DNA of 64,000 nucleotides from an uncultured Candidatus Saccharibacteria bacterium (GTDB taxonomy: Bacteria > Patescibacteriota > Minisyncoccia > Phycocordibacterales > CAIZLB01): positions 318,197 through 382,196 of the forward strand of contig CAZKAF010000001.1 of the NCBI GenBank assembly GCA_964550955.1. Reading direction: 5' to 3'. Positions within the stretch are counted from its first letter, which is position 1, and every line of letters starts with the position of its first letter. Position numbers and translations under genes: made by a program. The notes beneath the pieces were generated by a model. That model was not told the origin of the DNA and searched no databases. It saw only the letters and a list, made by a program, of their open reading frames with translations. This document shows, piece after piece, positions 5,659 through 55,796 of the stretch.

Positions 5659-8520
5659 CTACCGCTTCTTCAGCACCCTTCTCAAATATTCGCCGGTATG
5701 GCTCTTCGGATTATTGGCAACTTCTTCGGGAGTTCCCTTCGCCACTATCTTTCCGCCGCCGATGCCGCCGAGAGGGCCGATGTCGATAACGTAGTCCGAT
5801 GACTTGATGATATCCATGCTGTGCTCGATGACCACGACGGTGTTACCTTTCTGCACGAGCTTTTGCATGATTTCTATGAGCTTTCGCACGTCTTCGTAGT
5901 GAAGGCCGATGGTCGGCTCGTCGAGCAGATACATGGTTTTCTGGACATGAGGCCGATACAGTTCCGCTGACACCTTCACTCGCTGCGCCTCTCCGCCGGA
6001 AAGCGTAGTCGCGGACTGGCCGAGCTCGAGATATCCAAGACCTACTTCGTTCAAGGTATTCAAACGATCAGAAATTGAAGGGACATCTTCGAAGAACGCG
6101 AGAGCCTCTTCAACCGTCATCTTGAGCACTTCATAGATGTTCTTCTTCTTGTATCGCACTTCGAGCGTTTCCTTCATGAACCTCTTTCCGTTGCAGACAT
6201 CGCAGGTCACGTATACCGTCGGGAGGAAATGCATTTCCACTTCGATCATTCCGTTACCCTGGCAGTTCTCGCATCGCCCGCCTTTGACGTTGAAGGAGAA
6301 CCTGCTCGCCTTCCAGCCTCTGGCGCGCGCCTCGACGGTCTCGGCAAACATGTCCCGGATATGCGTCCAGGCGCCCGTATATGTCGCGGGGTTCGATCTT
6401 GGCGTCCGGCCGATAGGACTCTGATCGATGAGAATGGTTCGTCCCAAATACTCGGTGCCGGAGAAGCTTGCGCAGTTATAAATATTCGCGGACCGATGAT
6501 CCCGGTCGAGCCTTGCCAGCAAGTTCTTGTGAAGAATTTCGTATACAAATGAAGACTTGCCCGAGCCCGAAACGCCCGTAACCGTCGTCAGCCTTCCAAG
6601 AGGAACCTCGATGTTCATATTGTCGATATTGTTCACCTTGCCTCCGACGACCTTGATCCACCCCTTGTCCGCATCCCTTCTCTTTTCGGGAATTTCAATG
6701 ACCCTGTCTCCCCGAAGATAATCGAGCGTCACCGATTCGGTCGGATTAGTCTTGGCAGTCAGGAGCTCGCTGAGCCAGCCCGAAGCGATGACGTGCCCGC
6801 CATGAACTCCGGCGCCCGGCCCGATGTCTATGATGTAGTCAGCCGCGAAGATGGTGTCCTCGTCATGCTCCACGACGACGAGCGTATTCCCGAGGTCCCG
6901 AAGCTGAAGCAAGGTCTTGATGAGCCGGTCGTTGTCGCGCTGATGAAGGCCGATGGTCGGCTCGTCGAGCACGTAGAGCGCGCCCACCAGTCCGGAACCG
7001 AGCTGCGATGCCAGCCGGATGCGCTGGGCTTCGCCTCCCGAGAGCGTGTTCGCCTTTCGGTTAAGGGAAAGATATTCGATGCCGACGTCGTTCATGAACA
7101 CCAGTCGGGCCACGATTTCCTTGATGACGACTTTGGCAATTTCCGCGTCAACTTCGTTCAGCGGCAGATTGTTGAAGAAATGCAGGGAGCTTTCGATCGA
7201 AAGCGCGGTGAGGTCCACGATATTGATTCTCTTTTCAACTGTCTTTCCCTTGGCGTCAGTCTCGATTCCCATCAAGAAAACATGAAGGGCTTCGGGTCGA
7301 AGCCTGTCTCCCTTGCAGACAGGGCACGGATCGTTTATGAAAAAATGCCTTGTTCCGAGACCGTTGCATTCAGGGCAGGCGCCGTGCGGCGAGTTGAACG
7401 AGAAAAGCCTCGGCTCGACCTCGGGGAAGGAAAACCCGTCATGCGGACACATGAACTTCGAAGAGACCAGCTGATCGGTAGTCGTTGCCGGATTCTGCGT
7501 ATCGCCGTCATCCACGACGATGCGGATAAGGCCGTCAGCCTCATGGAGCGCGCGCTCGACCGACTCGTTGAGCCGCTCCCGGAAGCTCGCCGAGTTGTCG
7601 CTGATTTCCGAAATGTAAAACTGGTCGACGAGAATGTCGATGTCATGCTTCTTGGTCTTCGAGAGCACGATCTGTTCCCGCAGCTTCTTCACCGCCCCGT
7701 CCACTCGAGCCTCGTCATATCCCTTGCCGAGCATGTCATAGAGAAGCTGATAGTATTCGCCCTTCCTGCCGACGACGACCGGCGCGTAAATCTTGAACAT
7801 CCGCGTATCGAGCTCGACGCCCATCACCTTCTTTACCTTTGCGGCGGCTTTCTTTGAAGCGGAGGCGGCTGTAGCCGCACCCAAGGTAGCTGCTGCAGAA
7901 GCATCGCCTGATTTTGCCGAAGAATCCGAAGGACCTGAAGAAGCGCTGCTTTCCACGATATTGAAAATGGTCTGAAGAATTTCCTCTTTCGAGAGCTTCT
8001 TTATTTCCCTTCCGCACTCCAAGCAATGCGGCTTGCCGACTCGGGCGAAGAGAATTCGCAAGTAGTCGTAGATTTCGGTAATGGTCGCGACCGTTGATCG
8101 AGGATTGTTTGACCTGGACTTCTGGTCAATCGAGATGGCGGGAGAAAGGCCGACGATTTCGTCGACATCAGGCTTCTGCATCTGCCTTAGGAATTGCCGC
8201 GCATACGAAGAGAGCGATTCGACGTATCGCCTTTGGCCTTCGGCAAAAATAGTATCGAATGCAAGCGATGATTTTCCTGAACCGGAAAGCCCCGTGATGA
8301 CGACCATCTTGTTTCGCGGCATCTCAACCGAGATGTTTTTCAAGTTATGAGTCCTGGCGCCGCGCACGATGATGCTGTCTCCGACGGACATGTCAGTTCG
8401 GACTTTCTGCGCGACCAAGGGCTTTGAAGGCTTCTTTGCAGGCTCAAACCTTTGCCCGGATTTTGATGCAGCGCCAGGTTCAGATTGAGGATTTTTTGAG
8501 CTTTTTTTCATAATATCCAT
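5659..8520 (-). CDS. uvrA: excinuclease ABC subunit A
   Basis: 953 aa with two ABC ATPase modules ([14 protein letters not shown]...[12 protein letters not shown]; [11 protein letters not shown]...[12 protein letters not shown]) and zinc-finger CxxC pairs. Confidence 0.95.
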
Positions 8521-10405: not shown

Positions 10406-11161
10406 TTACCCCTTTCTTGTCTCGGCTTCATGGATATGGAACAAGTCCTCAAGTATCCGGGAATGAACTTCCCCTTCGCCGTGATGCCCGTGAAAATCAT
10501 GAATTTCTGCTGATTTTTCCTTCAGGAGATTTTCAAGCATGTGCATTCTTTCGAAATAAATGGCAAGCCGCTGCTGAATGGCCTCGTCGGTATCGTCCGG
10601 CCGAACCGGTCCGCCGGAACGCCGCGCGCTTTCGGCCCTGTCCAGGCACCTCTTCTTCGAGGCCTCCGGAGTAAGATTGATCCGGATGACTCCGACCTTC
10701 GGGTCCCGCCCGTGATATGCCCGCCCGAGCTCGAACAGATGATGCACCTGCTTGTCGCTTCTCGGAAATCCGTCGAAAATCAGGACGTGCTTCGTGCCGC
10801 CCGCCTCCCGCTGGACGGCAAAATGATTCATGAGCGCATTGAATGTCACGTCATCGTTGAGCATTCGGCCGGCCAGCATGTCCGTCTTGGCCTGCCGAAG
10901 CTCCTCATTCAGGTTGTCCGAGGTAAGGAGAATCGACCTTAGAATATCGCCGACAGCCGCAAAATCGGCATCCGTCTTCTTGAGAATCTTCTTAAGCTGG
11001 GTAGTCTTCCCCGACCCCTGCGGACCGACCAGGGCAATCACGTCGTATTTGCTCTTATGCGTATGGGACGCCTGTGTCGGCGCCTTCGAATCTGCGCGAG
11101 CGAGCGCATGCGAGGCCGAGTTTTTAGAACTTGTATTTTCTGAATTATTTTTATTTGGCAT
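10406..11161 (-). CDS. adenylate kinase family protein (short-LID type)
   Basis: P-loop VIALVGPQGSGKTTQ, NMP-binding GDILR and LIFDGFPR motifs. Start taken at MPNKNN; a low-complexity N-terminal extension is possible up to 11230. Confidence 0.7.
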   Translation of the reverse strand: MPNKNNSENTSSKNSASHALARADSKAPTQASHTHKSKYDVIALVGPQGSGKTTQLKKILKKTDADFAAVGDILRSILLTSDNLNEELRQAKTDMLAGRMLNDDVTFNALMNHFAVQREAGGTKHVLIFDGFPRSDKQVHHLFELGRAYHGRDPKVGVIRINLTPEASKKRCLDRAESARRSGGPVRPDDTDEAIQQRLAIYFERMHMLENLLKEKSAEIHDFHGHHGEGEVHSRILEDLFHIHEAETRKG

Positions 11162-11291
11162 TGATTCACTATAGCACAGCGGTTTGGCAGGGGGTGTGAA
11201 CAACGGACATCGCAGCTGCGATGTCATCAAATAAAAAAGCCGCGCGACTCACCGGATTTTACCAGTGAGCGCGCGACTCCGAACCGTCGGC

Positions 11292-11915
11292 TTACTCGGC
11301 GATGACGGGACATTCGATGCCGTAAATGCAGCAAAGCCCGTTCGCATAGCGAAGACCGTTGGCCATCATTTCTTCCCCATCCAGCGTGACAAGATCAACG
11401 CGGCCGGAATGCTCGGACAGCATCTTCCCCATGGCAGGAATCGTCTCCTTGCCGAAATCCCCGAGGCGGCGATAGAACTCCTCGAGCTCGTCATCCGACC
11501 GGTTTTCGCGGACCGGACGCTTCGCGCACTCATCGTCAGTCGTATCGACGTGGATGATGACGATGCTGTGGAATCCGTGCTCCTCGGCCAGGCTGATGAT
11601 GCGCGGCACCTGGTCGGGCTTCCTCAGCAGGCCGTCGGCGACGACGATCTGCTGATCCTTGTGATTTTCAAATTGCTGGCCGAAAGCGAGGAAAAGCTCG
11701 GTCGAAGGCCACAGAGTGCTTTGATGCTTCTCCATGTACCTTTGAGCCGCCCGAGCGATCTCGCTGTTATTCTGAATTTCGGCGCGGCAAACTTCCCCGA
11801 CGCCGATAATCGGAATCTGGGGAGCTATCTGCCCGAGAAACTTCAGAAGAGTCCCCTTTCCCGATTTCGGCTTGCCGAGCGGAATGAACAGCCTTTTCAA
11901 ACATTTCTTACTCAC
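11292..11915 (-). CDS. second nucleoside-monophosphate kinase family paralog (ADK-like, specificity unknown)
   Basis: IPLGKPKSGKGTLLKF P-loop, VADGLLRKPDQ (equivalent to LDGFPR) and an R..R..DD.E.....RL tail. Lies in tandem with the preceding ADK-like gene. Confidence 0.55.
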   Translation of the reverse strand: MSKKCLKRLFIPLGKPKSGKGTLLKFLGQIAPQIPIIGVGEVCRAEIQNNSEIARAAQRYMEKHQSTLWPSTELFLAFGQQFENHKDQQIVVADGLLRKPDQVPRIISLAEEHGFHSIVIIHVDTTDDECAKRPVRENRSDDELEEFYRRLGDFGKETIPAMGKMLSEHSGRVDLVTLDGEEMMANGLRYANGLCCIYGIECPVIAE

Positions 11916-33371: not shown

Positions 33372-34583
33372 TTACAGGCTAAAATTCTTGATCGAATAAA
33401 GGCTCTCGTCTTCAGCCTGGTCGGAAGGAGTCGAATCGTCGACAGGAACGGATTCGGCATTGGCGGAAGCCGCGCTCGCGGATTCAGGAACGCTCACGGC
33501 CGGCTCAATCTCGGACAATGTCATTTCAGCTGGCGTCAGGTACGCCGATTGCGCCGCCTCGACCGTCTCGGCCGGCGCCTCTGAGGCAAGCATTACCGGC
33601 GCCGCGGCAGCTGCAAAGCTTGCAGGGGCAGACGAGGCCGAAGCGCTGGCAGGCTGCGGCGAGTACGCTTCAGTCATCGACGCCGCGAAAATTTTCGCGA
33701 TATCGTTGCCGGAACCTTTTTCCCTATTCTCAAGCACGTCGAGCAAGTGCCGAAGGTCGTCATTGTTGAAGTAATCTATGACCACCTTGCCTCCCCTTTC
33801 CCGCTTCTCGATCATCACGCGAGTGCCGAGCGCCTGATTCAGCTTCTTCTCGAATTCTACGAGCTCGGGGTCGCTCGCGAACGAGTCTTTCTTCCTTGTC
33901 CGCTCGACGGCGACGCGCCTCGCTATCTGTTCCGCCTCCCGCACCGTTATTTTCTTGTAAATGATTTCCTTGAACAAGGTCTCCTGCTCTTCGGGCTTGC
34001 CGACAAGCATCAGCAGCGGCCGCGAATGGCCTTCCGTGATCTTTTTCTCGGAAAGCGCCTGAAGCATGTGCTCAGGGAGCGCAAGAAGGCGAATGCTGTT
34101 CGTCACGTATTCCCGGCTCTTCCCCATCTTCTCCGCAATCTGAACGTGCTTGAGGCCGAACTCGTCTGCCAGCCTCTGGAACGAGCGCGCCCTGTCTACC
34201 GCATTCAGGTCTTCTCGCTGGAGATTCTCTATGATGGCAAGCTCGAGCTTGACCCGCGCGTCTTCCTCGCCGGCCCGAATGATGACAGGAGCCTGGGCAA
34301 GACCGGCAAGCTTGGAGGCCCTAAGGCGCCGCTCCCCCGAAATGAGCTCATACTGGACATTCAAGCCGCCGTCCTCCTTGATGACTTCCTTTCGGGTCAC
34401 GACAAGAGGCTGCAGCAGGCCGTACATGCGGATAGAGTCCGCCAAGTCCTTGAGCGCATGCTGATCGAATTCTCTTCTCGGCTGATACGGGTTCGGCACG
34501 ATCTTTTCCAGTTCGATCCAGAAGATGGAGTTGTTAAAGTAATTCGATTTAGATGTTGGTTCCATAGACTGACATTCTAGCAT
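33372..34583 (-). CDS. parB: ParB/Spo0J-family partition protein with a long low-complexity C-terminal extension
   Basis: ParB box GLLQPLVVTRK...YELISGERRLRASKLAGL and HTH region. Ala/Ser-rich tail. Confidence 0.85.
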   Translation of the reverse strand: MLECQSMEPTSKSNYFNNSIFWIELEKIVPNPYQPRREFDQHALKDLADSIRMYGLLQPLVVTRKEVIKEDGGLNVQYELISGERRLRASKLAGLAQAPVIIRAGEEDARVKLELAIIENLQREDLNAVDRARSFQRLADEFGLKHVQIAEKMGKSREYVTNSIRLLALPEHMLQALSEKKITEGHSRPLLMLVGKPEEQETLFKEIIYKKITVREAEQIARRVAVERTRKKDSFASDPELVEFEKKLNQALGTRVMIEKRERGGKVVIDYFNNDDLRHLLDVLENREKGSGNDIAKIFAASMTEAYSPQPASASASSAPASFAAAAAPVMLASEAPAETVEAAQSAYLTPAEMTLSEIEPAVSVPESASAASANAESVPVDDSTPSDQAEDESLYSIKNFSL

Positions 34584-38089: not shown

Positions 38090-39064
38090 CTAGATGCCGT
38101 CCTCCGCCTTTTGGACGGCCTTCCTCCTGCCTCTTTTCAGATGCGACAGCACGATTGACACCAAGGCCCTTTTCTCATACATCCGAAGCCCCCTGTGCAT
38201 CCGAAGAGCTTCCGCCACGGCGGAATTGACCCAGCCCTCGACGAGATTGGTCGTGTTCGGGCAGCCTTCGTGATTCAAGAACGTGAAAATATTAGGAAGG
38301 GCGCGGCGCACGATGAGCCGGGCGCTCCTGAGCTTCGGATACCTGAAGTTTCCTGATTCATTCTTTTCGATGAGCTGCCTTGCGTATTTTTTCTCCCAAG
38401 CCTTATACAGGAACATCCACATTTCCTTGCCCGCGTTCGTCTTCGCATATTTCAATTTATATAAAATGCCTATGAGCTGGATGCTCGCCTCTTCTTTCGG
38501 CCTTCGTCCGGTGTACTGAAGGGCGAAGGCGACCACGTGGAATTGGCAACGCTGTATCGGCACGTTCGGCCACAAGCCCCTCGTCGCGGCGAACAGCCCC
38601 TTCTGGCCGTCCATGATGACGACTTCCGGCTCGGCGAACGAGGAAAGAAAATCCGACCAGACCAGAAGCGACTCATACGGCGCGAATCGCCAGTACAGGT
38701 TGTCATCCTCGTCAATCGCAACGAGCGCGCAGAGCGAATGGCCGTGAACGTAGGTGCCGTCCAGAATGAGCACGCGCGCCTTGGTCTGAGGCGGAATGAC
38801 CGGCTCGGGCATCTCCCTCATCAAGGGATGCAATCGCTTCCAGAGGGCTTGCCGGGTCTTATGATCCTTCAGCGCCATTTTGCTCAGGCTGTCCTTGCCT
38901 CCGAGCCAGCGGTCGAGCTTATAAAGGAGATGCTTCTTCTCGACGGCATCTTTCTTGCGCGTCGAGCTGACGCGGCAGGCCAGGCAATAAAAACGGGGCA
39001 ACCCTTTGGCGGTACGCCCCCAGTGCTCCAGCACCCCGTTGCATATCGGGCATTTTTTCTTCAT
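38090..39064 (-). CDS. DDE transposase, IS1595-family-like with an N-terminal zinc ribbon
   Basis: CPICNG...CLACR zinc ribbon, then acidic residues in ILDGTYV and VVIMDGQKG and a C-terminal N..E.....R motif (NTTNLVEGWVNSAVAEALRMHRG). No clear terminal inverted repeats found. Confidence 0.55.
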   Translation of the reverse strand: MKKKCPICNGVLEHWGRTAKGLPRFYCLACRVSSTRKKDAVEKKHLLYKLDRWLGGKDSLSKMALKDHKTRQALWKRLHPLMREMPEPVIPPQTKARVLILDGTYVHGHSLCALVAIDEDDNLYWRFAPYESLLVWSDFLSSFAEPEVVIMDGQKGLFAATRGLWPNVPIQRCQFHVVAFALQYTGRRPKEEASIQLIGILYKLKYAKTNAGKEMWMFLYKAWEKKYARQLIEKNESGNFRYPKLRSARLIVRRALPNIFTFLNHEGCPNTTNLVEGWVNSAVAEALRMHRGLRMYEKRALVSIVLSHLKRGRRKAVQKAEDGI

Positions 39065-45922: not shown

Positions 45923-46000
45923 AAACTAATTGTATCATAAGAAATTCCTAGCCAGATTTACCTCATGCCACGTAGAATATTCGAGCCGGCTTTTCTTGGT

Positions 46001-46017
46001 GGGCCCACAAGGATTCG
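46001..46017. repeat. 17-nt direct repeat of the tRNA-Trp 3' end
   Basis: GGGCCCACAAGGATTCG is identical to 46216-46232 inside tRNA-Trp, 215 bp away. Confidence 0.7.
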
Positions 46018-46214
46018 GTCGTTACACGACCAGTATGCCTTTTAAACAGTCTGTTCGCCTCGTTTATGTACCCAAATAATATCACAACATCACCCCTCGG
46101 CTCGATACTGTGCTCAAAAGCCCTTCTCATCCTTGTCGAAAGCACCCCGTGCTTCCTTGGACCCTTCGATGGAGGTAAAATACCGCCCAATAAATTAGGC
46201 GGTATTTTACTCTG

Positions 46215-46286
46215 CGGGCCCACAAGGATTCGAACCTTGAACCTCGCGTTTGGAGTGCGATGTTTTACCATTGAAACTATGGACCC
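46215..46286 (-). tRNA. tRNA-Trp(CCA)
   Basis: Reverse complement GGGTCCA..TCGCA-CTCCAAA-CGCGA..CAAGG-TTCGAAT-CCTTG-TGGGCCC-G. Discriminator G73; no encoded CCA. Confidence 0.8.
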
Positions 46287-46594
46287 GTTTTAATTTGATT
46301 GTGCTGATACAGGCGTCGGCATTCATCCGAAAGGCTTGCCGGACAGAGAACGCAATTCCGTAACTTGCTGATATTCTCAACGCGCCGCCAACCCAGCAAC
46401 AACGCCAAAATCTATATCAGATACGCAACATACTAATCTAAATCGCCTGAAAACTCAACAAATGACAGGGTGCCAGATTGGAGAGATGACACCCAAATCT
46501 CCGGCGACAACTTGAGAAACCAAAGCAAAAAGCACCTCGTACGTGTGCTTTTTGCAGGAGTAAGGAGTTCTGCGAACAACCAGACAAATACGTC

Positions 46595-46750
46595 TTACTT
46601 TTTAGACTCTGAAAAGTCCACTCTCTTTCGGAGTTTTTTGCTGTATTTCTTTAGTTTGATTTTTCGTTCTACGCCTTTTTTGTTCTTTCGAGTGAAGATC
46701 ACTTCTCCAGTTGGCTTATGTACGATTTTGATGAGTCTATCTTGTGACAT
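46595..46750 (-). CDS. rpmG: 50S ribosomal protein L33 (51 aa; absent from ORF track)
   Basis: MSQDRLIKIVHKPTGEVIFTRKNKKGVERKIKLKKYSKKLRKRVDFSESKK aligns in pattern with L33 ([21 protein letters not shown]...[20 protein letters not shown]). Confidence 0.7.
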   Translation of the reverse strand: MSQDRLIKIVHKPTGEVIFTRKNKKGVERKIKLKKYSKKLRKRVDFSESKK

Positions 46751-46848
46751 GGTTGTATATTATGTTTACATAAAATGCTATTTCTAAGTTGTTCGTCTTT
46801 GACCTTATTTAAGCCTTTGATGAACGCTTCCTTACATTTTACTGGTGT

Positions 46849-46862
46849 GCAGAGCAGGATTC
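46849..46862. repeat. 14-nt direct repeat of the tRNA-Tyr 3' region
   Basis: GCAGAGCAGGATTC is identical to 47014-47027 inside tRNA-Tyr, ~150 bp away. Confidence 0.6.
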
Positions 46863-46985
46863 TCCGACTACGTCGGCAGGTGCTTTTCGATCTCATCTTC
46901 GCTTGATACCAAGCTCGATTCGATAACGAAAAGCCTTTCTCATCCTGCACGAAAGTCATAAATGACTTTCTTATGCTTACCTAAT

Positions 46986-47010
46986 AAAAAGGACATTTGT
47001 CCTTTTTTTG
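46986..47010. terminator. bidirectional rho-independent terminator abutting the tRNA-Tyr 3' end
   Basis: AAAAAGGACAtttGTCCTTTTTTT; the GGACA/TGTCC stem has U-runs on both strands. Confidence 0.5.
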
Positions 47011-47094
47011 TGCGCAGAGCAGGATTCGAACCTGCGAAGCCCAATGGGCGTTTGATTTACAGTCAAATGCGATTGACCACTCCGCCATCTGCGC
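47011..47094 (-). tRNA. tRNA-Tyr(GTA) with a long variable arm
   Basis: Reverse complement GCGCAGA..TTTGA-CTGTAAA-TCAAA..long variable arm..CAGG-TTCGAAT-CCTG-CTCTGCGC-A. Confidence 0.8.
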
Positions 47095-47355: not shown

Positions 47356-50067
47356 TCATGCGCCGACCGCTACCAGGCTTTCCTTGGCGCCGATCGTCTT
47401 CTTCCCGCCTTTTTTCACGGTGAAGGTAAACTCGCTCGTTTTCGCATCCACCCCGACCGTAACCGTTCCTCCTCTCATGACGCCCTGATCTATGATAAGC
47501 GAGGCGACCTGATTCAGGATCTTGTTCTGGATGAGGCGCTTGAGCGGCCGAGCGCCGTACTGCGGGTTATACCCTTCTTTCGCCAAGTACTGCACCGCAG
47601 GCTCTGAGAATTCGAGCTTGATGTCCTTGTCGCTGAGCCTCGCCTTGACCTTCGTAAGCTCAATCTCCACGATGTTTCGGATAGCTTCCTGGCTGAGGAT
47701 GTCGAAAATGACAATCTCGTCGAGCCGGTTGATGAACTCCGGTCGGAAATGCTCCTTGAGGGATTCCATCACCTTCTCCTTGGTCTCCGCATAGTTTTCT
47801 TTGTCAGTTCCACTGGCCGAGAAGCCGATCTTCTGCATTCGGTCGATGTATTGTGCGCCAATATTCGAAGTCATGATGATGATAGTGTTCTTGAAATTGA
47901 TCGTCCTGCCTTTCGAGTCAGTCAGCCGTCCGTTGTCGAGAACCTGCAAAAGCACGTTGAAGATTTCAGGATGCGCCTTCTCAATCTCGTCGAACAGGAT
48001 GACGGAGTACGGCCGATGCTTCACCGTCTCGGTCAAGCTTCCCGAGTCTTCATGGCCGACATAGCCCGGAGGCGCGCCGATGATTTTCGAGACCGCATGC
48101 TTTTCCATGTACTCCGACATGTCCACTCGGATAAGGGCCTTCTCGTCGTCGAACATGAACTTGGCAAGCGCTTTCGTCAGTTCCGTTTTTCCTACGCCGG
48201 TCGGGCCAAGGAAAATGAACGAACCGATAGGCCGGGCAGGATCGTTGATTCCCGCTCTCGATCGCTTGATGGTGTCGGCGATTTTCTTAACCGCCTCGTC
48301 CTGGCCGACAACCTGCTCCTTGAGGCCGTCCTCCATTCGCGAGAGCTTCTGCGCTTCCTCCTCAAGCATTCTTGAAACCGGAATGCCAGTCCATCGAGCC
48401 ACCACTTGCGCGATTTCCTGCTCGTTGATTTCCTCCTTGAGGATGCGCCTGAATACCTGAAGCTTCTTGAGCTTCTTCGTCTTCGTATCTAAATCCTTCT
48501 CGAGCATCGGAATCTTTCCATAGCGAATCTCCGCGACTTTTGAAAGGTCCGCCTTTGATTCGGCCCGCTCGGATTCCTGCCGAGCCGTCTCGAGCTGCTT
48601 CTTGATATTCTTGATGTCGGAGAGAGTTTCCCGCTCATTGATCCATTTCGCTTCGATCTCGGAAGTGCCCGCCTTGAGGTTGGCTATTTCCTCTTCGATG
48701 ACCTTGAGCCGCGCCTTTGACTTTGCGACGAGGGGCGCGTCCGACCCGTTCTGGGCATCCTTGCTGAGCGCCTCTTTCTCTATTTCGAGCCGCATGATCT
48801 TCCGATGAGCGTCTTCGAGCTCGGCCGGCTTGTTTTCCAAAGAAATTTTAAGAGAAGAGGCCGCCTCATCAATGAGGTCAACCGCCTTGTCAGGAAGGAA
48901 CCTGTCGCTGATATACCTGCTTGAAAGATTCACCGCCGAAACGATGGCGTCATCCGTGATGCGCACGCCGTGATACAGCTCGTATTTTTCCTTGAGGCCG
49001 CGAAGGATGGCGACCGCATCCTCAATGGAAGGCTCGTTGACATACACGGGCTGGAAGCGTCGCTGAAGCGCGGGGTCCTTTTCGATATGCTTCTGATACT
49101 CCTTGAGCGTAGTGGCGCCGACTGCCCTTAGCTCGCCTCGCGCGAGCGCAGGCTTGAGCATGTTCGAAGCGTCAAGCGACCCTTCGGCAGCTCCTGCGCC
49201 CACTATGGTATGAATCTCGTCTATGAAAAGGATGATCTTGCCGTCCGACTTCTCTATCTCTTTAAGAATATTTTTAAGCCGCTCCTCAAACTCTCCCCTG
49301 TACTTCGTGCCGGCAATGAGAATGCCGAGGTCAAGCGAGACCAGCTCCTTTTCCCTCAAGGACTCGGGCACGTCGCCGAGCGCGATGCGATTCGCCAAGC
49401 CTTCGATGATGGCCGTCTTGCCGACGCCTGCCTCGCCGATTAGTATCGGATTGTTCTTCGTCCGCCTCGAAAGAATCTGAATCACGCGCATGATTTCAGT
49501 ATCCCTTCCGATGACCGGGTCGAGCTTGTGCTCTCGGGCGAGAGCCGTCAGGTTTCTCGTATACTTGACGATGGCCTTCATTTTTTTTGAGCCGCCCTCG
49601 CCGTTTCCTGATGTCTTGCTCTGCTTTATCTCCTGAAGCGCCTTATGAATGCTGTCTTTCTCGATCTTGAACCGGGCGAGCATGTCGCGCGCGGGGTTCG
49701 ACGTATCAAAAAGCGCGAGGAAAAGATGCTCCACGTTCACGAACTCGTCTTTCATGCCCGCCGCGACTTTTGCAGAATTTTCTATGATTTGCGCGAGTTC
49801 CGGCGTCAGGTACAGCTGATACGAAGGCGCGATCGTAGCCCCGCCGTCGCCGTTGTCGATGGCCTCAAGAACGTTGTCCGTGAGGAGGATGGTATCCACG
49901 TCCAGCCGCTCAAGCACGGAGAAGACGATGCTGTCTTCCTGAACAAGCAGCGCGGTGAGCAAATGAACGGGGCTGACATGGTTCTGAGCGCGCTCGATGG
50001 CCAATTCATGGGCTTTTTTAATGACTTCCTTGGCTTTTGTTGTGAAATTGTTGAATGGTGGCATCAT
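47356..50067 (-). CDS. clpB: ATP-dependent chaperone ClpB
   Basis: 903 aa with an N-terminal Clp repeat, two AAA+ modules ([10 protein letters not shown]; [10 protein letters not shown]) and a long middle coiled-coil domain characteristic of ClpB. Confidence 0.9.
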
Positions 50068-50079
50068 ATTTTTGGAGTA

Positions 50080-51444
50080 TTATAACATAGTGGTCAAGAC
50101 CTGGCTGATAATCATTTTCGCCCGTTCGACTTCGTCCTTCGTCGTATGTTTTCCGAGCGTGATCCTGAGCGAGCTTTTCGAGCAATTTTTCTTATTTTTC
50201 TGACCTTCGACCGAAGCGCTGAGCGCTTCTACTACATATGAAGACGAATCTTCCTTCTTTGACTTACAGCTCGTCACCGACGAGACAAAAACGCCTTTCG
50301 CGTCGAGCCGAATGACCGCGAATTCCGCATCCATATTTTCCAAGCACACATTTATGTTGTTCGGCAGGCGCTCCTTCATGCTTCCGTTTACCTTGAGAGA
50401 GGGAACTTGCTCAAGCAGATGCGAGAGCAGGCCGTCTCTCAATTCCCCGACCCTTGCCGACTCGGCTTCCCTGTCCTTCTGGCAAAGCTCGAGCGCTTCG
50501 GCGAAGCCGACGATGTTCGCCACCGGCTCAGTTCCCGGCCGGACGTATTCTTCCTGAGCGCCTCCGAAAAGCAGAGGCCTCAGCTTGATGCCTTTCTTGG
50601 CAAACAAGACGCCCGTTCCCCGCGGACCGTAAAACTTGGAGCTGTCGAGCGTCATCATGTCCACTCCGAGGCTCGGAACGCGAAGGCTGCAGTAGGCGGG
50701 AGCTTGGCATGCGTCCGTGTGAAATGCCGGCAAAGTTTTTTCGAAAATTTCTTCAGGAGACGATCCTTCGCCGCCGACCTCGCTCTTGTTCTTGCGATGG
50801 TGCCGTATGGCCTTGGCAATTTCGTGAATCGGCTGCAACGTTCCGATTTCATTGTTCGCGTATTGAATCGTGACCAAGGCCGTCTCGCGCCTAAGCGCCG
50901 ACTTGAGTTCCTTGAGATCGACGATGCCGTCTTCCGTCACCGGAACGTATGTAATGTCGCACATGCCCGAGCGGCCCATGTCTTTCAGGACTTCCAGCAC
51001 CGACGGGTGCTCTATCGTCGAAGTGACGATATGCGGCTTGAAATATACATTTGAAATGACGGCCGAGAAGAATCCCCTGATTGCCAGGTTATTCGATTCC
51101 GTCCCTCCGGACGTGAAATACAGCTCGTTCGCATGGACCTCCAGGCACCTTGCCGCGGCGCCCCGCGCCTCCTCGAGTTTTTTCGAGGATCTTACTCCGG
51201 CCGAGTACAGCGACGACGGATTGGCATAGAATTCCCTTGAAGCCTCGTGCATCTTGGCAAGGACGGCCGGATCGACGGGCGTAACCGAGGCATAGTCCAG
51301 GTAAATGTCTTTTTCGTCCTGAGTCGAGCCTCCGAAGCCACCCTCAACCGCCCCTTTCGCGGATTCTGCCTCCGCGCTTTTTGCGCCCTCAGCGGCCAAG
51401 CTCTTCGCCGGCCCGTCCTTAAAGATGGATTTGAAAAAGTTCAT
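50080..51444 (-). CDS. cysteine desulfurase (NifS/IscS family, class V aminotransferase)
   Basis: SGGTESNNLAIRG, the PLP-Lys region (KFYGPRGTGVLFAKK) and an Ala/Glu-rich N-terminal extension. Start taken at ATG 51444; a TTG start lies at 51468. Confidence 0.8.
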   Translation of the reverse strand: MNFFKSIFKDGPAKSLAAEGAKSAEAESAKGAVEGGFGGSTQDEKDIYLDYASVTPVDPAVLAKMHEASREFYANPSSLYSAGVRSSKKLEEARGAAARCLEVHANELYFTSGGTESNNLAIRGFFSAVISNVYFKPHIVTSTIEHPSVLEVLKDMGRSGMCDITYVPVTEDGIVDLKELKSALRRETALVTIQYANNEIGTLQPIHEIAKAIRHHRKNKSEVGGEGSSPEEIFEKTLPAFHTDACQAPAYCSLRVPSLGVDMMTLDSSKFYGPRGTGVLFAKKGIKLRPLLFGGAQEEYVRPGTEPVANIVGFAEALELCQKDREAESARVGELRDGLLSHLLEQVPSLKVNGSMKERLPNNINVCLENMDAEFAVIRLDAKGVFVSSVTSCKSKKEDSSSYVVEALSASVEGQKNKKNCSKSSLRITLGKHTTKDEVERAKMIISQVLTTML

Positions 51445-51514
51445 ATGTTTATATCCCCAACTATACAAAAAAGTCAGGCGTCTGTATACTTTTCAGGTAC
51501 ATACCAAAAACCAT

Positions 51515-52009
51515 ATGAACTCAATACAGAATCTCTCAATCGAACTCATCGGAATCATCGCCTTGGCAGTCTTCTGCCTCGTGCTCCTGTCGCTCTTCGT
51601 CTATCAGCAAAGGAGAATCTCAAGGCTCCTTCGGGGAAAAAATACGGTCAACATCGAGGATTCGATCATCGAGCTCGCGAAGGAGCTCGACTCGCTTTCG
51701 AATTTCAGGGAAGAATCTGAAAAATATTTCGCCATCGTCGAAAAAAGGCTTCGAAAATCGGTTCAGGCCATCGAGACGAAGCGATTCAATCCGTTCAAGG
51801 GAACGGGAGCCGGAGGAAATCAGAGCTTCGCGTCGGCATTCGTGAATGAAAACGGCGACGGCCTCATTCTTTCGAGCCTGTACTCAAGCGACCGGGTGAG
51901 CATGTTCGCGAAGCCTGTCGAAAAATTCAAGTCATCATACGAGCTGACGGAAGAGGAGCAGGAAGCGCTGACTGACGCGGAGACGCGAGCGACGCAGTAT
52001 CATCTTTAG
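51515..52009 (+). CDS. DUF4446-like protein with an N-terminal TM anchor
   Basis: TM helix IELIGIIALAVFCLVLLSLFVY followed by ..RFNPFKGTGAGGNQSFASAFVNENGDGLILSSLYSSDRV.., the conserved core pattern of DUF4446-type proteins. Confidence 0.5.
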   Translation: MNSIQNLSIELIGIIALAVFCLVLLSLFVYQQRRISRLLRGKNTVNIEDSIIELAKELDSLSNFREESEKYFAIVEKRLRKSVQAIETKRFNPFKGTGAGGNQSFASAFVNENGDGLILSSLYSSDRVSMFAKPVEKFKSSYELTEEEQEALTDAETRATQYHL

Positions 52010-52050
52010 GCTTAAGCTTCTAAATCTTGAAGTTTGTTTTTTGTAATGAA

Positions 52051-52091
52051 AATAAAAAAGGCCGAGCGATGTTTTTCAACATGGCTCGGCC
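52051..52091 (-). terminator. rho-independent terminator for the 52109-52726 gene
   Basis: Long hairpin GGCCGAGCGATGTT-tttc-AACATGGCTCGGCC, followed on the minus strand by TTTTTTATTTT. Confidence 0.55.
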
Positions 52092-52108
52092 TCATGCCTT
52101 GCAGCCGC

Positions 52109-52726
52109 CTAATTGACGGCCTTCGGGCTGTACGTGTACAAGGTCTTGACCCTGAAACGCTGACTTTCAAACCATTGCACCCAGGCACCGTACTCGCGAG
52201 GATTTGCCATCGTGAGCTTGCCGGTGCAATCCTTGATCAGGAGCACCCCGTCCGTACATTCGGGAATCGCTCTGGTGTCCCAGCGCATGTTCACCTGATT
52301 CGGAGGAGGGCAAGGAACGCTCAGGTCCCTTGACTGCCAGCGGCCGGGAACATGAACGATGGGTGCCTGGTACTGCCGCGATCCGCTTTGCGAAAAACGA
52401 GCGTAGCCTGGAGCAGGCGCCCGCGCGGCCGCGACTTGCTGCCGCGCCGGGGCTTTCGGAGCCGGAGGCCTCTCATAGACCGGCGAGACGGCGGGCCGAT
52501 AATTCTGCCCCTGGCTCGCATGATGATGGCCGGCTTGCTGCTGACCAGCGTGCTGGTAGCCATAACCGTAGCCGCCGTAATAACCATACGGTCCGTAAGG
52601 GCTGCAGCTGCTCATGACAAGCAGGCTTGCCGCGGACAACGACAGGCGGACGACTTTTCCCTGAAGGCCTGACAGGAGCAGGCCGACTGACGACTTGAAT
52701 GAACTAAGCGAAGCTGATTGCTTCAT
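52109..52726 (-). CDS. secreted protein or lipoprotein with a Tyr/Gly-rich low-complexity region
   Basis: Signal peptide with a possible lipobox (LLVMSSCS). YGPYGYYGGYGYGYQH repeat, Pro/Ala-rich linker and a Cys-containing C-terminal domain. Confidence 0.55.
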   Translation of the reverse strand: MKQSASLSSFKSSVGLLLSGLQGKVVRLSLSAASLLVMSSCSPYGPYGYYGGYGYGYQHAGQQQAGHHHASQGQNYRPAVSPVYERPPAPKAPARQQVAAARAPAPGYARFSQSGSRQYQAPIVHVPGRWQSRDLSVPCPPPNQVNMRWDTRAIPECTDGVLLIKDCTGKLTMANPREYGAWVQWFESQRFRVKTLYTYSPKAVN

Positions 52727-53107
52727 GACTGTTATTTCCCTTTCTGCCTATGGGTTTGCTGCACACGTCAGGGATCAACTGATCCTTGCGACCTCGCTCG
52801 CGCTGCCGGCAAGACTGCCAGCCGCCCTCGTTTGGTGGCAAATACCTCCGTGTTTGGAAAATAGGCATTTCCAGCACCGATTATCTATTATAAGCCTGGA
52901 ATGTCAATCTTTATTGCTAAATTAGGCAAAATGTTGTATCTTTTTAGCAAGCGTTTCTTTATCTCGCTTTTATTTTATTTTCATCTAGTCATTTATCAAC
53001 GCAGGTCGGAGCATGCAGGCAACCGGGAGGTCTTACCAAGATTTTCATGCAAGGCGCTCAGAGTACGGATATCTGGATATTATAGATGATGCCTAACCCA
53101 ACCACTC

Positions 53108-54673
53108 ATGAGCAAAAAAACTACACAATCGAATACGAGTAACATTCAAGCTCGGCCTCCGGTTGTCGTAGTCATGGGACATGTCGATCACGGCAAGTCC
53201 ACTCTCCTCGACTACATTCGAAGCTCGAAGGTGGTGGACAAGGAAGTCGGCGGCATCACGCAGAGGATGTCCGCGTACGAAGTCGTTCGCAAGATTGACG
53301 CCGACGGCAAAAAAGCAGACAAGACGATCACCTTCCTCGACACCCCGGGCCACGAGTCGTTCAATGCCATCCGGGCGCGCGGAGCCAATGCTGCTGACAT
53401 AGCAATTCTCGTCGTATCGGCGGAAGACGGCGTCAAGCCGCAGACACTGGACGCGTACAAGGCGATCAAGTCATCCGCCGTGCCGTTCATAGTCGGCATC
53501 AGCAAGATCGACAAGCCGAATGCGAACCTCGAGCGGGTAAAGCTTTCCCTTGCGGAAAATGAAATCTACGTCGAGGGATACGGAGGGACGATTCCCTTTG
53601 TTCCCTTCTCCGGAAAGACGGGCCAAGGAGTCGACGATTTGCTCGACATGATTCTTCTTACGGCCGAAGTCGAGAACTTTTCCGCTGACTACGGCGCCCA
53701 GGCGGAATGTCTTGTCGTAGAATCCAACCGCGACAAGGTCCGGGGAACGTCGGCGACGCTCATCGTCAAGAACGGGGTCCTCCGGACTGGTTCCGTGGCC
53801 GTTGCGGGCCTCGCCATGTCCCCTGTCCGAATCATGGAAAGCTGTGCCGGCAAGCCGCTCAAGGAAGCCACGCCGTCCATGCCCATAAGAATCGTCGGAT
53901 GGGATAGCGAGCCCGAAGTGGGAGGCATGTGCTTCACCTTCGCCACAAAGAAGGAAGCCGAGAAATACATCGAGGCCGAAAAGGAGAAAATTGCGGCAGC
54001 AGATGAGAAAAGCAAGAACAACGGCGCGCCGAACAATCCCATCGGCATGTACAATTCAACGGAAGAAAACAAGATCATTCCGCTGATCGTGCGGGCGGAC
54101 ACGTCGGGATCAATCGAAGCCGTCAAGTACGAGATATCCAAGATTCAGGTCGAGCGGGCCACGCTCAAGATAGTTCAGGCGGGCATCGGGGACATCAACG
54201 AGAACGACGTGAAGTCGGCCATCGGCGTGCCGGGAACGCTCATCGTCGGCTTCACGGTCAAGACCGACGCGTCGGCGAAGCGGTTCGCCGAGCAGCACGG
54301 AGTTGAGATCCAGGTATTTGACATAATCTACAAGCTTACAGAATGGCTCGAATCAGAAGCCAGGAACAGGGCCGGAAAGATACGGGTCGAGGAGCAGAAA
54401 GGGATCGCCAAGGTGCTGAAATTCTTCAGCGCCATCCGGGACAAGCAGGTCATCGGAGCTCGCGTCGAGGCCGGCACCCTCTCCATCAACGACGAGGTCC
54501 GCATCGTCAGGCGAGACCATGAAATCGCGCGAGGCAGAATCCGGGAGCTTCAGCACATGAAGAGCAAGGTCGGCTCGATCGAGGAAGGAAAGGAATTCGG
54601 AACGATGATCGAATCGAAGATAGAGCTTGCGCCCGGCGACAAGATAGAAGCGATTCACGTCGTCGTGAGATAG
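53108..54673 (+). CDS. infB: translation initiation factor IF-2, short form lacking the N-terminal domains
   Basis: G domain ([30 protein letters not shown]), then domain II and the C1/C2 domains; 521 aa. Confidence 0.9.
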
Positions 54674-55359: not shown

Positions 55360-55527
55360 CAGAATGCGGCGCAAGCACGGTGTCATGGCGGTCCTGAGAA
55401 ACCCCCGGACGGCACTTTTTCTTTTCTTTCTTTTATGCTATAAAGTACTTACTTTTATAGTGCAGGGAAACGAAGACGGAAGTCGCGGGACGGAGGAATT
55501 CGAGAAACGCATGATAAAATCACATAT

Positions 55528-55603
55528 CCGCCCGTAGCTCAGTTGGTAGAGCAACTCCCTCTTAAGGAGATGGTCGTAGGTTCGAATCCTACCGGGCGGA
55601 CCA
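55528..55603 (+). tRNA. tRNA-Lys(CTT), CCA encoded
   Basis: Acceptor CCGCCCG/CGGGCGG (C1-G72), D-stem GCTC/GAGC, anticodon loop CTCTTAA, and T-arm GTAGG-TTCGAAT-CCTAC. A27/A43 mismatch. Confidence 0.7.
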
Positions 55604-55777
55604 TAAACAAAAGAATACTTTTCAAGTGTTGCTTTTGTTTATTTGAAGCCCGAGTGCATAATTTATTATGCACGTGCAGGATTCGAAAGGGTTCTCCTGT
55701 ATTTTTGAGAAACGAGCAAAGTTCATGGCTGAGCGAGTTTTGAAAAAATAGGAAACCCGTACTGGTCCTGTAAGGAC

Positions 55778-55796
55778 CGAATCCTACCGGGCGGAC
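55778..55796. repeat. 19-nt direct repeat of the tRNA-Lys 3' end
   Basis: CGAATCCTACCGGGCGGAC is identical to 55583-55601 inside tRNA-Lys, ~195 bp downstream. Confidence 0.7.

Follow-up and report, generated by a model that had tools for sequence, protein, structure and literature searches.

Why should a tRNA gene be followed, at a distance of about 200 nucleotides, by a second copy of its own tail? The question is raised by a stretch of 64,000 nucleotides from the genome of an uncultured Candidatus Saccharibacteria bacterium (contig CAZKAF010000001.1, positions 318,197 to 382,196 of the forward strand), which we call the window and number from its first letter. An earlier note on this DNA observed that the genes for tRNA-Trp and tRNA-Tyr are each trailed by a perfect direct repeat of their 3' end, and proposed that the segments between the repeats are either scars of decayed or excised integrative elements or miniature integrative elements. 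In this report, we describe these segments as members of a family of 130-220 bp, hairpin-rich noncoding elements, here termed element E, that lie directly behind tRNA genes of bacteria of the candidate phyla radiation (CPR, or Patescibacteria). We propose that E is a non-autonomous, structure-dependent insertion element that targets tRNA 3' ends and is moved by a putative trans-acting enzyme, a reading to which we assign a probability of about one half.

Repeated tRNA tails in the window

Eight tRNA genes were predicted in the window by ARAGORN and confirmed by Rfam. The genes for tRNA-Trp and tRNA-Tyr are assigned by both to the minus strand, so their repeat copies lie downstream in the tRNA sense. 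The repeat of tRNA-Trp (GGGCCCACAAGGATTCG) is exact over 17 nt. That of tRNA-Tyr (GCAGAGCAGGATTC) is exact over 14 nt (46849-46862 and, within the gene, 47014-47027) and grows to 18 nt with one mismatch (46845-46862 versus 47010-47027). Both begin at T-loop position 56/57 and run to where the acceptor 3' strand ends. The gene for tRNA-Lys, on the plus strand, has a repeat of 19 exact nt (CGAATCCTACCGGGCGGAC). In all three cases, the copy lies 165-215 nt downstream of the tRNA segment that it repeats (Table 1).

The repeats are found where the earlier note had placed them, and a statistical check of the kind that it had suggested, run on the eight tRNAs of the window, indicates that they are not random. 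The longest tail repeats of these tRNAs measure 6, 5, 17, 14, 7, 7, 19 and 6 nt; when the downstream sequence was shuffled 4,000 times, the longest match averaged 6.0 nt and reached a maximum of 11 nt, which three of the tRNAs exceed. The T-loop TTCGAATCC occurs in exactly these three, and the other five, which lack it, have repeats of at most 7 nt. Chance similarity or an assembly artefact, to which only the short repeat of tRNA-Tyr would lend any color, is refuted by the shuffles, by an independent Logan contig (L005) on which the Trp locus is identical, and by more than 150 unrelated contigs with the same architecture. The two latter findings also dispose of misassembly, which the earlier note had listed as a way in which its proposal could fail, and its assertion that the pattern is systematic is borne out by tRNA-Lys and by copies throughout the family. 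The neighboring LD-carboxypeptidase gene was used to seek orthologous Trp loci; synteny was not kept, and the search gave no close relatives for an empty-site comparison.

One fold behind three tRNAs

The segments that follow tRNA-Trp, tRNA-Tyr and tRNA-Lys are homologous beyond their tRNA-derived bases and share one common fold. Read in the tRNA sense, E consists of a spacer hairpin, a copy of the tRNA 5' acceptor strand (a5'), the hairpin P2, the helix P3, the long hairpin P4, the hairpin P5 and the copy of the tRNA 3' end. This distal repeat copy supplies the 3' strand of two stems, P3 and the outer P1. The 5' strand of P3 is a copy of the T-stem 5' strand followed by GGAU-UC or GGAU-GA. 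P5 follows a short junction, GUACU, and reads GGUCC-UGUAA-GGACC, or CCGAC-GUA-GUCGG in the Tyr copy. Among the window elements, a5' is present in the Trp copy and partly in the Lys copy. Folding of the Tyr element gives z=-4.8 as RNA and z=-5.5 as DNA, and that of the Lys element z=-5.6 and z=-5.4, respectively. The subtype represented by the Tyr element also occurs behind tRNA-Pro in another locus (L063).

The small perfect palindromes that the earlier note had taken as hints of scars or miniature elements do exist, as P2 of the Tyr element (46951-46970) and as the spacer hairpin of the Trp element (46177-46208); they are conserved structural modules of E. Two other interpretations of the internal sequence were rejected. 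A small open reading frame (ORF) starting at the ATG of GGATGAGAA (MRRAF.../MRKAF...) is judged noncoding, as most family members have GGATTCGAA, without the ATG. A hammerhead-like reading of GAUGAGAA...CGAA is not compatible with the CUGA turn and the junction lengths, and has no Rfam match.

A family in CPR genomes

The motif GGTCNTGTAANGACCGAATCC matches 27 contigs in a collection of species-representative genomes, and all 27 belong to Patescibacteria (Paceibacterota, Kaiserbacteria and Saccharibacteria). A related motif is present in at least 120 metagenome contigs. Copies were collected by using these two P5-centered motifs, and a covariance model, R1, was built from 25 copies; conservation of P5 and integrity of the core are therefore partly imposed by the way in which copies were found. 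Model R1 finds 171 copies (160 distinct) in the window and the collected loci, and in the window it finds only the elements behind tRNA-Trp, tRNA-Tyr and tRNA-Lys. The family is larger than this count, because diverged relatives, such as those behind tRNA-Leu(TAA) in L144 and tRNA-Pro in L063, escape the model. In one sub-family (L044, L061, L069, L077, L085 and L148), an extra small hairpin (for example, GATAAGCGTACTCGCGGTC) is located between the T-loop-derived CGAU and the T-stem copy, so the 3' arm of E tolerates modular insertions.

Among 2.9 million viral contigs, none matches the family motif, and deposited phages and plasmids contain no match to the Lys element. Rfam 15, including its hammerhead, twister, tmRNA, Yrl and T-box families, yields tRNA matches only, with sub-threshold hits at chance level, and a search of the literature found no description of such elements.

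Covariation supports the fold. In an alignment of 119 distinct sequences, which was fitted to the model and is for that reason somewhat inflated in its pairing, 91.5% of paired cells hold standard pairs, compared with 67% in shuffles. The covariation score is 0.561, compared with 0.163 in shuffles, none of 500 reaching the observed value, and controls in which the pairing partners were slid score 0.105 or less. Changes on both sides are seen in 18 of the 22 pairs, including all eight pairs of the P4 base and four of the five of P5. An alignment made with MAFFT only gave the same picture. The P2 hairpin stands just upstream of P3 in approximately 80% of copies, with a mean z of -2.2. Because wobble pairs (119) outnumber A.C pairs (56), the strand that folds is taken to be the tRNA-sense strand; G.A pairs number 82.

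Arms that match the neighboring tRNA

Among 148 distinct copies with adequate context, 109 have a tRNA gene on the same strand within 300 nt upstream. These tRNAs represent 32 anticodons, and the spacer between tRNA and element has a median of 67 nt. Several of the copies with no tRNA adjoin N-masked or truncated tRNAs. Runs of N were seen inside tRNA genes of the stored genome records (L014, about 7120-7130; L007, about 6662-6684), so some elements that seem to stand alone are masking artefacts.

The arms of E follow the tRNA in front of them. The 3' strand of the element corresponds to tRNA positions 57-65 and its 5' strand to the complement, and variants of T-loop and T-stem are mirrored in the two arms (GAATCC/GGATTC, GATTCT/AGAATC, GATTCC/GGAATC, GAGTCC/GGACTC, GAATCT/AGATTC and GAGCCC/GGGCTC). 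At four variable positions, the match to the element's own tRNA is 2.96 of 4, versus 1.35 of 4 to non-cognate tRNAs. Upstream of P2, 53 of the 109 tRNA-linked copies repeat at least 6 of the 7 positions of the 5' acceptor strand, versus 10% with non-cognate tRNAs. Of the 109, 33 have a perfect acceptor 3' copy (8 of 8); in most others it is missing, often through abrupt truncation. The distal repeat ranges from 7 to 27 nt across the family. We considered an encoded CCA, which follows the repeat in the Trp and Tyr elements of the window, as the mark of a functional tRNA-like 3' end, and rejected it because only 5 of 34 exact copies family-wide have it.

The T-loop-to-3'-end duplication thus agrees with the earlier note's description of it as a classic footprint of integration into tRNA genes. 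The inverted copy, whose parts are the 5' acceptor and 5' T-stem strands, is split exactly where the 5' strands of the tRNA are split. A simple attL/attR duplication therefore explains the direct copy only, and the note's reading is incomplete in this respect.

Signs of repeated DNA insertion

Several features of the loci indicate that E has been inserted repeatedly as DNA: tandem arrays of different subfamilies, the best tRNA match in the proximal copy, variable occupancy, and identity that runs past the tRNA end. The last of these is seen in 13 of the 34 exact copies, in which identity continues 3 nt past the discriminator, and in L019, where at least 24 identical nt are shared with the tRNA region. 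The distal copy also tracks the unpaired T-loop base 59. An RNA mimic would need neither property.

Arrays of the form tRNA-E-E occur in eight loci. In six of them, the two elements belong to different P4 subfamilies (approximately 50% identity), which argues for independent arrival. The tRNA-proximal copy matches the tRNA better in seven arrays (for example, 19 versus 17, 18 versus 15, 17 versus 14 and 19 versus 13) and equally well in the eighth. L096 has at least three units with different spacers. In L017, two copies that are 100% identical bracket a gene for a 136-aa protein, and a third, partial copy lies behind a gene for a 182-aa protein; the identity begins right after ...TCCGC and stops at the end of the distal copy, giving sharp boundaries. 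L028 similarly has genes between elements. Copies in L017, L009, L013 and L028 stand directly after ...CCGC, whereas most copies of the family are flanked by repeats of approximately 20 nt.

Occupancy varies among diverged genomes. L086/L035 and L144 also have the Cys/Leu(TAA)/Lys/Leu(TAG) cluster that is seen in the window, with E behind different tRNAs, and tRNA-Gly(GCC) is empty in L063 and occupied in L016, L076 and L092. The same types of spacer are found behind many different tRNAs, which implies that the spacer travels with the element. One type is a palindrome of A-tract, hairpin and T-tract whose arms run into the tRNA acceptor 3' strand and a5'; another is a mini-hairpin of the GAGCGAAGCGA type. 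Taken together, these observations place the suggestion of miniature integrative elements close to the mark. The alternative of scars left by a decayed or excised prophage or island did not hold, because the 150-200 bp between the repeats are an intact member of a conserved, covarying, CPR-wide family.

Some of these loci have features of interest in their own right. In L017, the leaders of the two small genes behind E copies (2894-2965 and 3622-3718, preceding the 136-aa and 182-aa ORFs) share GTATCGGA, CCGAGTACCTAAG and AAGTTATAAT, and the shared patches end in a TATAAT box 7-8 nt before the start codon, which suggests related leaderless-type promoters on cassette-like units. In L144 (about 2806-2950, minus strand), a direct fusion between a 26-nt piece of tRNA-Cys (anticodon arm to T-stem 5' strand) and an E core lies shortly before an intact tRNA-Cys, the reverse of the usual order; this is a hint that the T-loop of a duplicated tRNA fragment can house an E core. 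In L086 (1460-1800), tRNA-Leu(TAG) is split. A 5' piece of 32 nt and a 3' piece that runs from the variable arm to the 3' end, with matching acceptor strands (GGGCGAG/CTCGCCC), stand on either side of an insert. The insert holds a complete second tRNA-Leu(TAG) whose acceptor stem is different, and the arrangement is that of a classic integration of the replacement type, here at the anticodon stem. Finally, between tRNA-Lys and tRNA-Leu(TAG) of L144 (about 1170-1490, minus strand), four tandem 49-nt units of GAGGCGGGGTCGCGACTTTCGCGAAGCGAAAAGTTGTGACGACAAAGTCC occupy the place of E behind tRNA-Lys. A similar module, GAGGCGGGGTCGCGA...TTGTGACC, is present inside spacers of L006, L040, L081 and L093, and the repeat appears to be a second type of hairpin repeat that CPR bacteria carry downstream of tRNAs.

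Proposed mechanism

Our proposal can be stated by using two segments. The tRNA ends in Q, which extends from T-loop nucleotide C56 through the discriminator and often 1-3 nt more. E contains Q', an inverted copy of Q that is split like the tRNA 5' strands into a5' and the 5' T-stem strand with GGAUUCG, and that has P2 between its parts. Next come P4, the GUACU junction and P5 with its UGUAA loop, which make up a conserved three-way core, and then a second, direct Q. The element presumably arrives by site-specific recombination or insertion at the T-loop-to-3'-end segment. Such an event would regenerate an intact tRNA and leave the second Q at the far end, as in the observed repeat. The folded single strand may be the recognition target of a trans-acting host or helper enzyme, in a manner comparable to the recognition of integron attC sites and of IS200/IS605/REP hairpin ends. 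In an excised circle, Q and Q' could form one stem, with the spacer hairpin on one side and P2, P4 and P5 on the other. Integration would split this stem into two chromosomal pairings, namely, a palindrome that runs into the tRNA end and P1/P3 around the core. The complementarity of Q' to Q might be kept by selection for the fold, by hairpin-templated correction, or by both.

A more specific version appears doubtful to us. In this version, E would be a protein-less, self-targeting element of a novel type. Its folded single strand would imitate the acceptor/T-arm minihelix of one tRNA, and its Q' would serve as a guide of approximately 20 nt that pairs with the tRNA 3' segment; a conserved housekeeping enzyme (a recombinase, nuclease or tRNA-processing enzyme) would thus be recruited to place the element at exactly that tRNA, with retargeting by a change of arm. 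A related idea, a scaffold with a 3' guide like that of TnpB and omega-RNA, was rejected because the guide also matches the intact tRNA next to the T-loop "TAM" (target-adjacent motif), which would cause self-targeting, and because a linked nuclease gene is absent.

Weighing the alternatives

A number of results weigh against insertion by a trans-acting enzyme. A Pfam search of the 64-kb window detected no integrase, IS200/IS605 transposase, recombinase or reverse transcriptase. Clustering of 769 ORFs located beside copies revealed housekeeping synteny and no enriched recombinase, transposase or reverse transcriptase, and none of the ORFs in the window and approximately 870 kb of loci has an HUH motif. 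The same searches, together with those of phage and plasmid DNA, speak against the integrase-driven origin that the earlier note had in mind. Among the loci compared, we observed neither an excised circle nor a strictly matched pair of empty and occupied alleles, and the occupancy comparisons all set diverged genomes side by side. A further difficulty for the proposal is how a single family could retarget to 32 tRNAs with both arms matched. The core helices are equally intact with or without the distal acceptor copy (a comparison biased by detection with the model), which fits host-level selection on the core. The 5' part of the element resembles a collapsed tRNA body (a5', A-R-G-C, P2), as would also suit an RNA mimic. 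Helix statistics (covariation, wobble versus A.C pairs, and G.A pairs) fit RNA as well as single-stranded DNA. Finally, a terminator scan did not call the post-tRNA hairpins of the three window tRNAs, which are terminator-like by eye; we therefore give little weight to an argument from terminators at these loci, and the result leaves room for co-transcription of E with its tRNA.

The main rival is that E is a host-functional, tRNA-like noncoding RNA, one for each tRNA, transcribed with that tRNA or just after it. P1 and P3 would mimic the minihelix of the cognate acceptor and T-arm for RNase P, RNase Z, the CCA-adding enzyme and perhaps a synthetase or modification enzyme; the P4/P5 core would carry the function, and the repeat would exist because the RNA must resemble its tRNA. 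We regard this rival as possible, if on balance unlikely. It accommodates a covarying fold on the tRNA-sense strand, G.A-type internal loops and a UC-to-GA double change that keep a T-loop-like or sheared-pair geometry, an a5' that copies the 5' strand of its own tRNA including a G.U pair, P2 at exactly the position of the tRNA body, a core that stays intact when the distal acceptor copy is lost, copies inside tRNA operons, and the failure to find a mobility enzyme in the window and the neighboring ORFs. In L016, moreover, the element ends 22 nt before the next tRNA and must, given so short an interval, be transcribed with it. Mimicry, however, requires neither the tracking of T-loop nucleotide 59 nor a copy that runs into the trailer. 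It also does not account well for the stacking behind one tRNA of two or three elements from unrelated subfamilies, whose match to the tRNA falls off from the proximal to the distal copy, for occupancy that varies between related genomes, for the loss of the acceptor copy in approximately 60% of copies (so that P1 often cannot form), or for an encoded CCA in only 5 of 34.

Whether the folded molecule is RNA or DNA bears on the same choice. GCGNAGC, the hyperstable DNA mini-hairpin heptamer, occurs 46 times on the sense strand compared with 5.7 expected, whereas its reverse complement occurs 5 times compared with 4.9 expected. The RNA-specific cUUCGg loop is not enriched, nor are hyperstable RNA tetraloops, and the fold is equally significant with DNA parameters (z approximately -5.4). 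Many spacers between tRNA and E, 32 of 109 by a crude script, are terminator-like, a further difficulty for a co-transcribed RNA. The evidence of the heptamer on one strand only, of the loops, of the DNA parameters and of identity past the tRNA end leans toward DNA; the tRNA-like topology, the preservation of the core when the acceptor arm is absent, and co-transcription in L016 lean toward RNA.

A local origin, in which a tRNA is partially duplicated in tandem, its body collapses to a hairpin, and P4/P5 and the arms are kept by gene conversion (concerted evolution), seems rather improbable. The order of parts in E is tRNA-like (a5', bases resembling N8-R9-G10-C11, a hairpin, the T-stem 5' strand, a split T-loop, the T-stem 3' strand and the acceptor 3' strand), the tRNA-Cys fragment of L144 is fused to an E core, L086 demonstrates that partial tRNA duplications occur at such loci, and a conserved 3' block of 26 nt could support conversion between copies. 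Yet this origin would need the same collapse and T-loop insertion independently at 32 tRNAs, or conversion over 7-10 nt of homology. It is also at odds with unrelated subfamilies in tandem behind one tRNA and with spacer and core subfamilies that recur, from genome to genome, at different tRNAs. Classical att scars, that is, integrase-bearing prophages or islands deleted down to approximately 200 bp between attL and attR, are highly improbable. They would produce the direct repeat, since the segment from T-loop to 3' end is the textbook identity block of tRNA-targeting tyrosine integrases, and they would suit the gene-containing arrays flanked by elements in L017 and L028. Independent deletions, however, would not leave the same covarying structure in at least 160 copies, which essentially refutes this explanation. 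The window has no integrase remnants, matches in phages, plasmids and viral contigs are lacking, and Q' would be left without a cause. On this balance, we favor the structure-dependent insertion element.

Surroundings and coordinates in the window

The neighborhood in the window is ordinary chromosome. The gene for L33 lies between the Tyr and Trp loci, and nearby genes encode ClpB, IF-2, UvrABC, SerRS, TopA, ParB, MiaA and TGT. Family-wide, recurrent neighbors of E encode a YraN-like protein, the CCA-adding enzyme, IF-2, Xth, Def/Fmt and RNase Y; the first two of these recur because they belong to one conserved, tRNA-rich region. Xer-like recombinases are encoded in four loci, 3-5 kb from elements, and none adjoins an array. 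A 324-aa ORF of the window (38090-39064, minus strand) has a partial match to Mutator-family (IS256-like) transposases (PF00872, E=1.5e-7, profile positions 202-306). It is probably a degraded insertion sequence, approximately 7 kb from the Trp locus and with no obvious link to the elements.

The cumulative GC skew has its minimum at approximately 50000-54000, where gene orientation turns from mostly minus to mostly plus, and this region may be a replication origin. ParB is encoded at 33372-34583; dnaA was not seen in the window. With a minimum in this region, the folding strand of the three elements would be the lagging-strand template, an assignment confounded with gene orientation. Two further observations concern other parts of the window. 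The 167-nt gap between tRNA-Leu(TAA) and tRNA-Lys (55361-55527) contains a pyrimidine run, CTTTTTCTTTTCTTTCTTTT, and a hairpin, TATAAAGTACTTACTTTTATA, and has no match to the E model. Adjacent minus-strand ORFs at 10406-11230 and 11292-11915 both match adenylate kinase (PF00406); they may represent a tandem duplication, or a pair that is split or has diverged.

Table 1. Positions of the three elements and their tRNA genes in the window. E(Trp), E(Tyr) and E(Lys) are the elements behind the respective tRNAs.
Feature	Position	Strand	Remarks
tRNA-Trp (CCA), host/target	46214-46286	-	ARAGORN; Rfam tRNA, 57 bits; proximal repeat C56-N72 = 46216-46232
E(Trp), whole unit	45997-46213	-	from the base after the tRNA to the distal copy + ACCA; RNA fold
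E(Trp), covariance-model match	46005-46138	-	56.7 bits, E=3e-12
E(Trp), spacer hairpin	46177-46208	-	AAAATACCGCC-N9-GGCGGTATTTT; 9-nt loop; terminator-like by eye; not called by terminator scan
E(Trp), a5'	46158-46164	-	GGGTCCA; identical to tRNA-Trp 5' acceptor strand including G.U; pairs with distal acceptor 3' copy (P1)
E(Trp), P2	46138-46155	-	GAAGCAC-GGG-GTGCTTTC
E(Trp), P3 5' strand	46127-46135	-	CAAGGATGA; T-stem 5' strand copy, then GGAU-GA
E(Trp), P4	46037-46123	-	long variable hairpin; P4 base covaries family-wide
E(Trp), junction and P5	46017-46036	-	AUACU; GGUCG-UGUAA-CGACC
E(Trp), distal copy of C56-N72	46001-46017	-	17 nt exact; then A-CCA (45997-46000)
tRNA-Tyr (GTA), host/target	47010-47094	-	ARAGORN, Rfam; proximal repeat 47010-47027
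E(Tyr), whole unit	46843-47009	-	diverged subtype; model match 46851-46951, 44.5 bits
E(Tyr), spacer hairpin	46986-47009	-
E(Tyr), P2	46951-46970	-	GAAAGTCAT..ATGACTTTC
E(Tyr), P3 5' strand	46940-46948	-
E(Tyr), P4	46882-46936	-
E(Tyr), junction	46877-46881	-	ACCUG
E(Tyr), P5	46864-46876	-	CCGAC-GUA-GUCGG
E(Tyr), distal copy	46845-46862	-	14 nt exact, 17/18; then CCA
tRNA-Lys (CTT), host/target	55528-55603	+	ARAGORN, Rfam; proximal repeat 55583-55601
E(Lys), whole unit	55604-55796	+	model match 55673-55790, 75.3 bits
E(Lys), spacer hairpin	55605-55640	+
E(Lys), partial a5'	55648-55652	+	GCCCG
E(Lys), P2	55654-55673	+
E(Lys), P3 5' strand	55676-55684	+	GCAGGATTC
E(Lys), P4	55689-55758	+
E(Lys), junction	55759-55763	+	GTACT
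E(Lys), P5	55764-55778	+	GGTCC-TGTAA-GGACC
E(Lys), distal copy	55778-55796	+	19 nt exact

Significance and comparison with known systems

Genomes of CPR bacteria are tiny and streamlined, yet a considerable fraction of their tRNA genes, three of the eight in the window, carry a structured passenger of 130-220 bp. As insertion elements, these passengers would be smaller than any other tRNA-targeting integrative unit known. Their target-matched arms would then suggest recognition by nucleic-acid structure or pairing, not by an element-encoded integrase, and would point to a possibly programmable recombination activity. The guided version, if true, would amount to an insertion system that is naturally programmable, guided by nucleic acid and endemic to CPR bacteria. 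If they are RNAs, they represent a new CPR-wide class of tRNA-specific tRNA mimics. With either reading, E explains many of the "partial tRNA" fragments and short repeats in CPR assemblies, provides a lineage marker for CPR DNA in metagenomes, and identifies tRNA 3' ends as hotspots that gather small gene cassettes, as in L017 and L028.

E was compared with several known systems; among the features examined, it appears to lack at least one that defines each of them, and it fits no named family. Classical miniature inverted-repeat transposable elements have inverted arms of their own, whereas the inverted arms of E copy the target tRNA, and the repeat, at 7-27 nt, is not of fixed length. Among tRNA-like RNAs, E resembles the t-elements of plant mitochondria, mascRNA, YrlA and viral tRNA-like structures in having an acceptor-stem and T-stem mimic adjacent to genes, and it would be a plausible substrate of RNase P, RNase Z and the CCA-adding enzyme. 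Unlike them, it has a three-way (P4/P5) junction in place of the T-loop, often lacks the acceptor part, is specific to the neighboring tRNA down to trailer nucleotides, and piles up in tandem.

Repetitive extragenic palindromes and bacterial interspersed mosaic elements (REP/BIME) with their RAYT transposases, and the non-autonomous derivatives of IS200/IS605 (PATEs), are likewise small, abundant, strand-specific hairpins at gene 3' ends, mobilized in trans. E shares with them a conserved tetranucleotide, GUAC, at the 5' foot of a hairpin (P5), a folding strand that would be the lagging-strand template, and, in L017, a copy directly 3' of a short motif, TCCGC, that is also the 3' end of the element. 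In contrast, no Y1/HUH transposase was found in the window and approximately 870 kb of loci, and the arms of E, at approximately 20 nt, are tRNA-like and matched to the tRNA; E itself is found in strict association with tRNAs.

Tyrosine-integrase prophages and islands differ from E in that only 150-200 bp of noncoding hairpins lie between its repeats. Closer in form are the cis-mobilizable elements (CIMEs) known from work on integrative and conjugative elements of Streptococcus, which are integrase-less, att-flanked elements that can be mobilized in cis and that accrete in tandem at tRNA 3' ends. Like CIMEs and other tRNA-targeting elements, E has a direct tRNA repeat that extends from the T-loop to the 3' end or just past it, leaves the tRNA intact, occurs in tandem at one tRNA and varies in occupancy; like CIMEs in particular, it has no recombinase inside. 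Unlike these elements, E is 10-100 times smaller, mostly cargo-less and folded into covarying hairpins, and it holds an internal inverted copy of the att core arranged like the tRNA 5' strands. One E family serves at least 32 tRNA species, is not seen on phage or plasmid DNA, and has no cognate integrase in the window or loci.

The remaining comparison is with integrons. An attC site (approximately 60-140 nt, recognized as a folded single strand) is, like E, an imperfect palindrome of variable sequence and conserved structure. Integrons also share with E inverted inner core boxes, a newest-looking unit next to the primary site, units with no ORF, and occasional single-gene units, as in L017 and L028. 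E differs in that no IntI was found beside its arrays, its primary site is a tRNA gene and not attI, most of its units are empty, and its outer arms are tRNA-specific; in place of the attC boxes RYYYAAC/GTTRRRY, its boxes (GGAUUCG/CGAAUCC) are derived from the T-loop and vary with the tRNA. By analogy with these systems, the nearest working model for E would be an att-flanked integrative unit in miniature whose folded site resembles attC.

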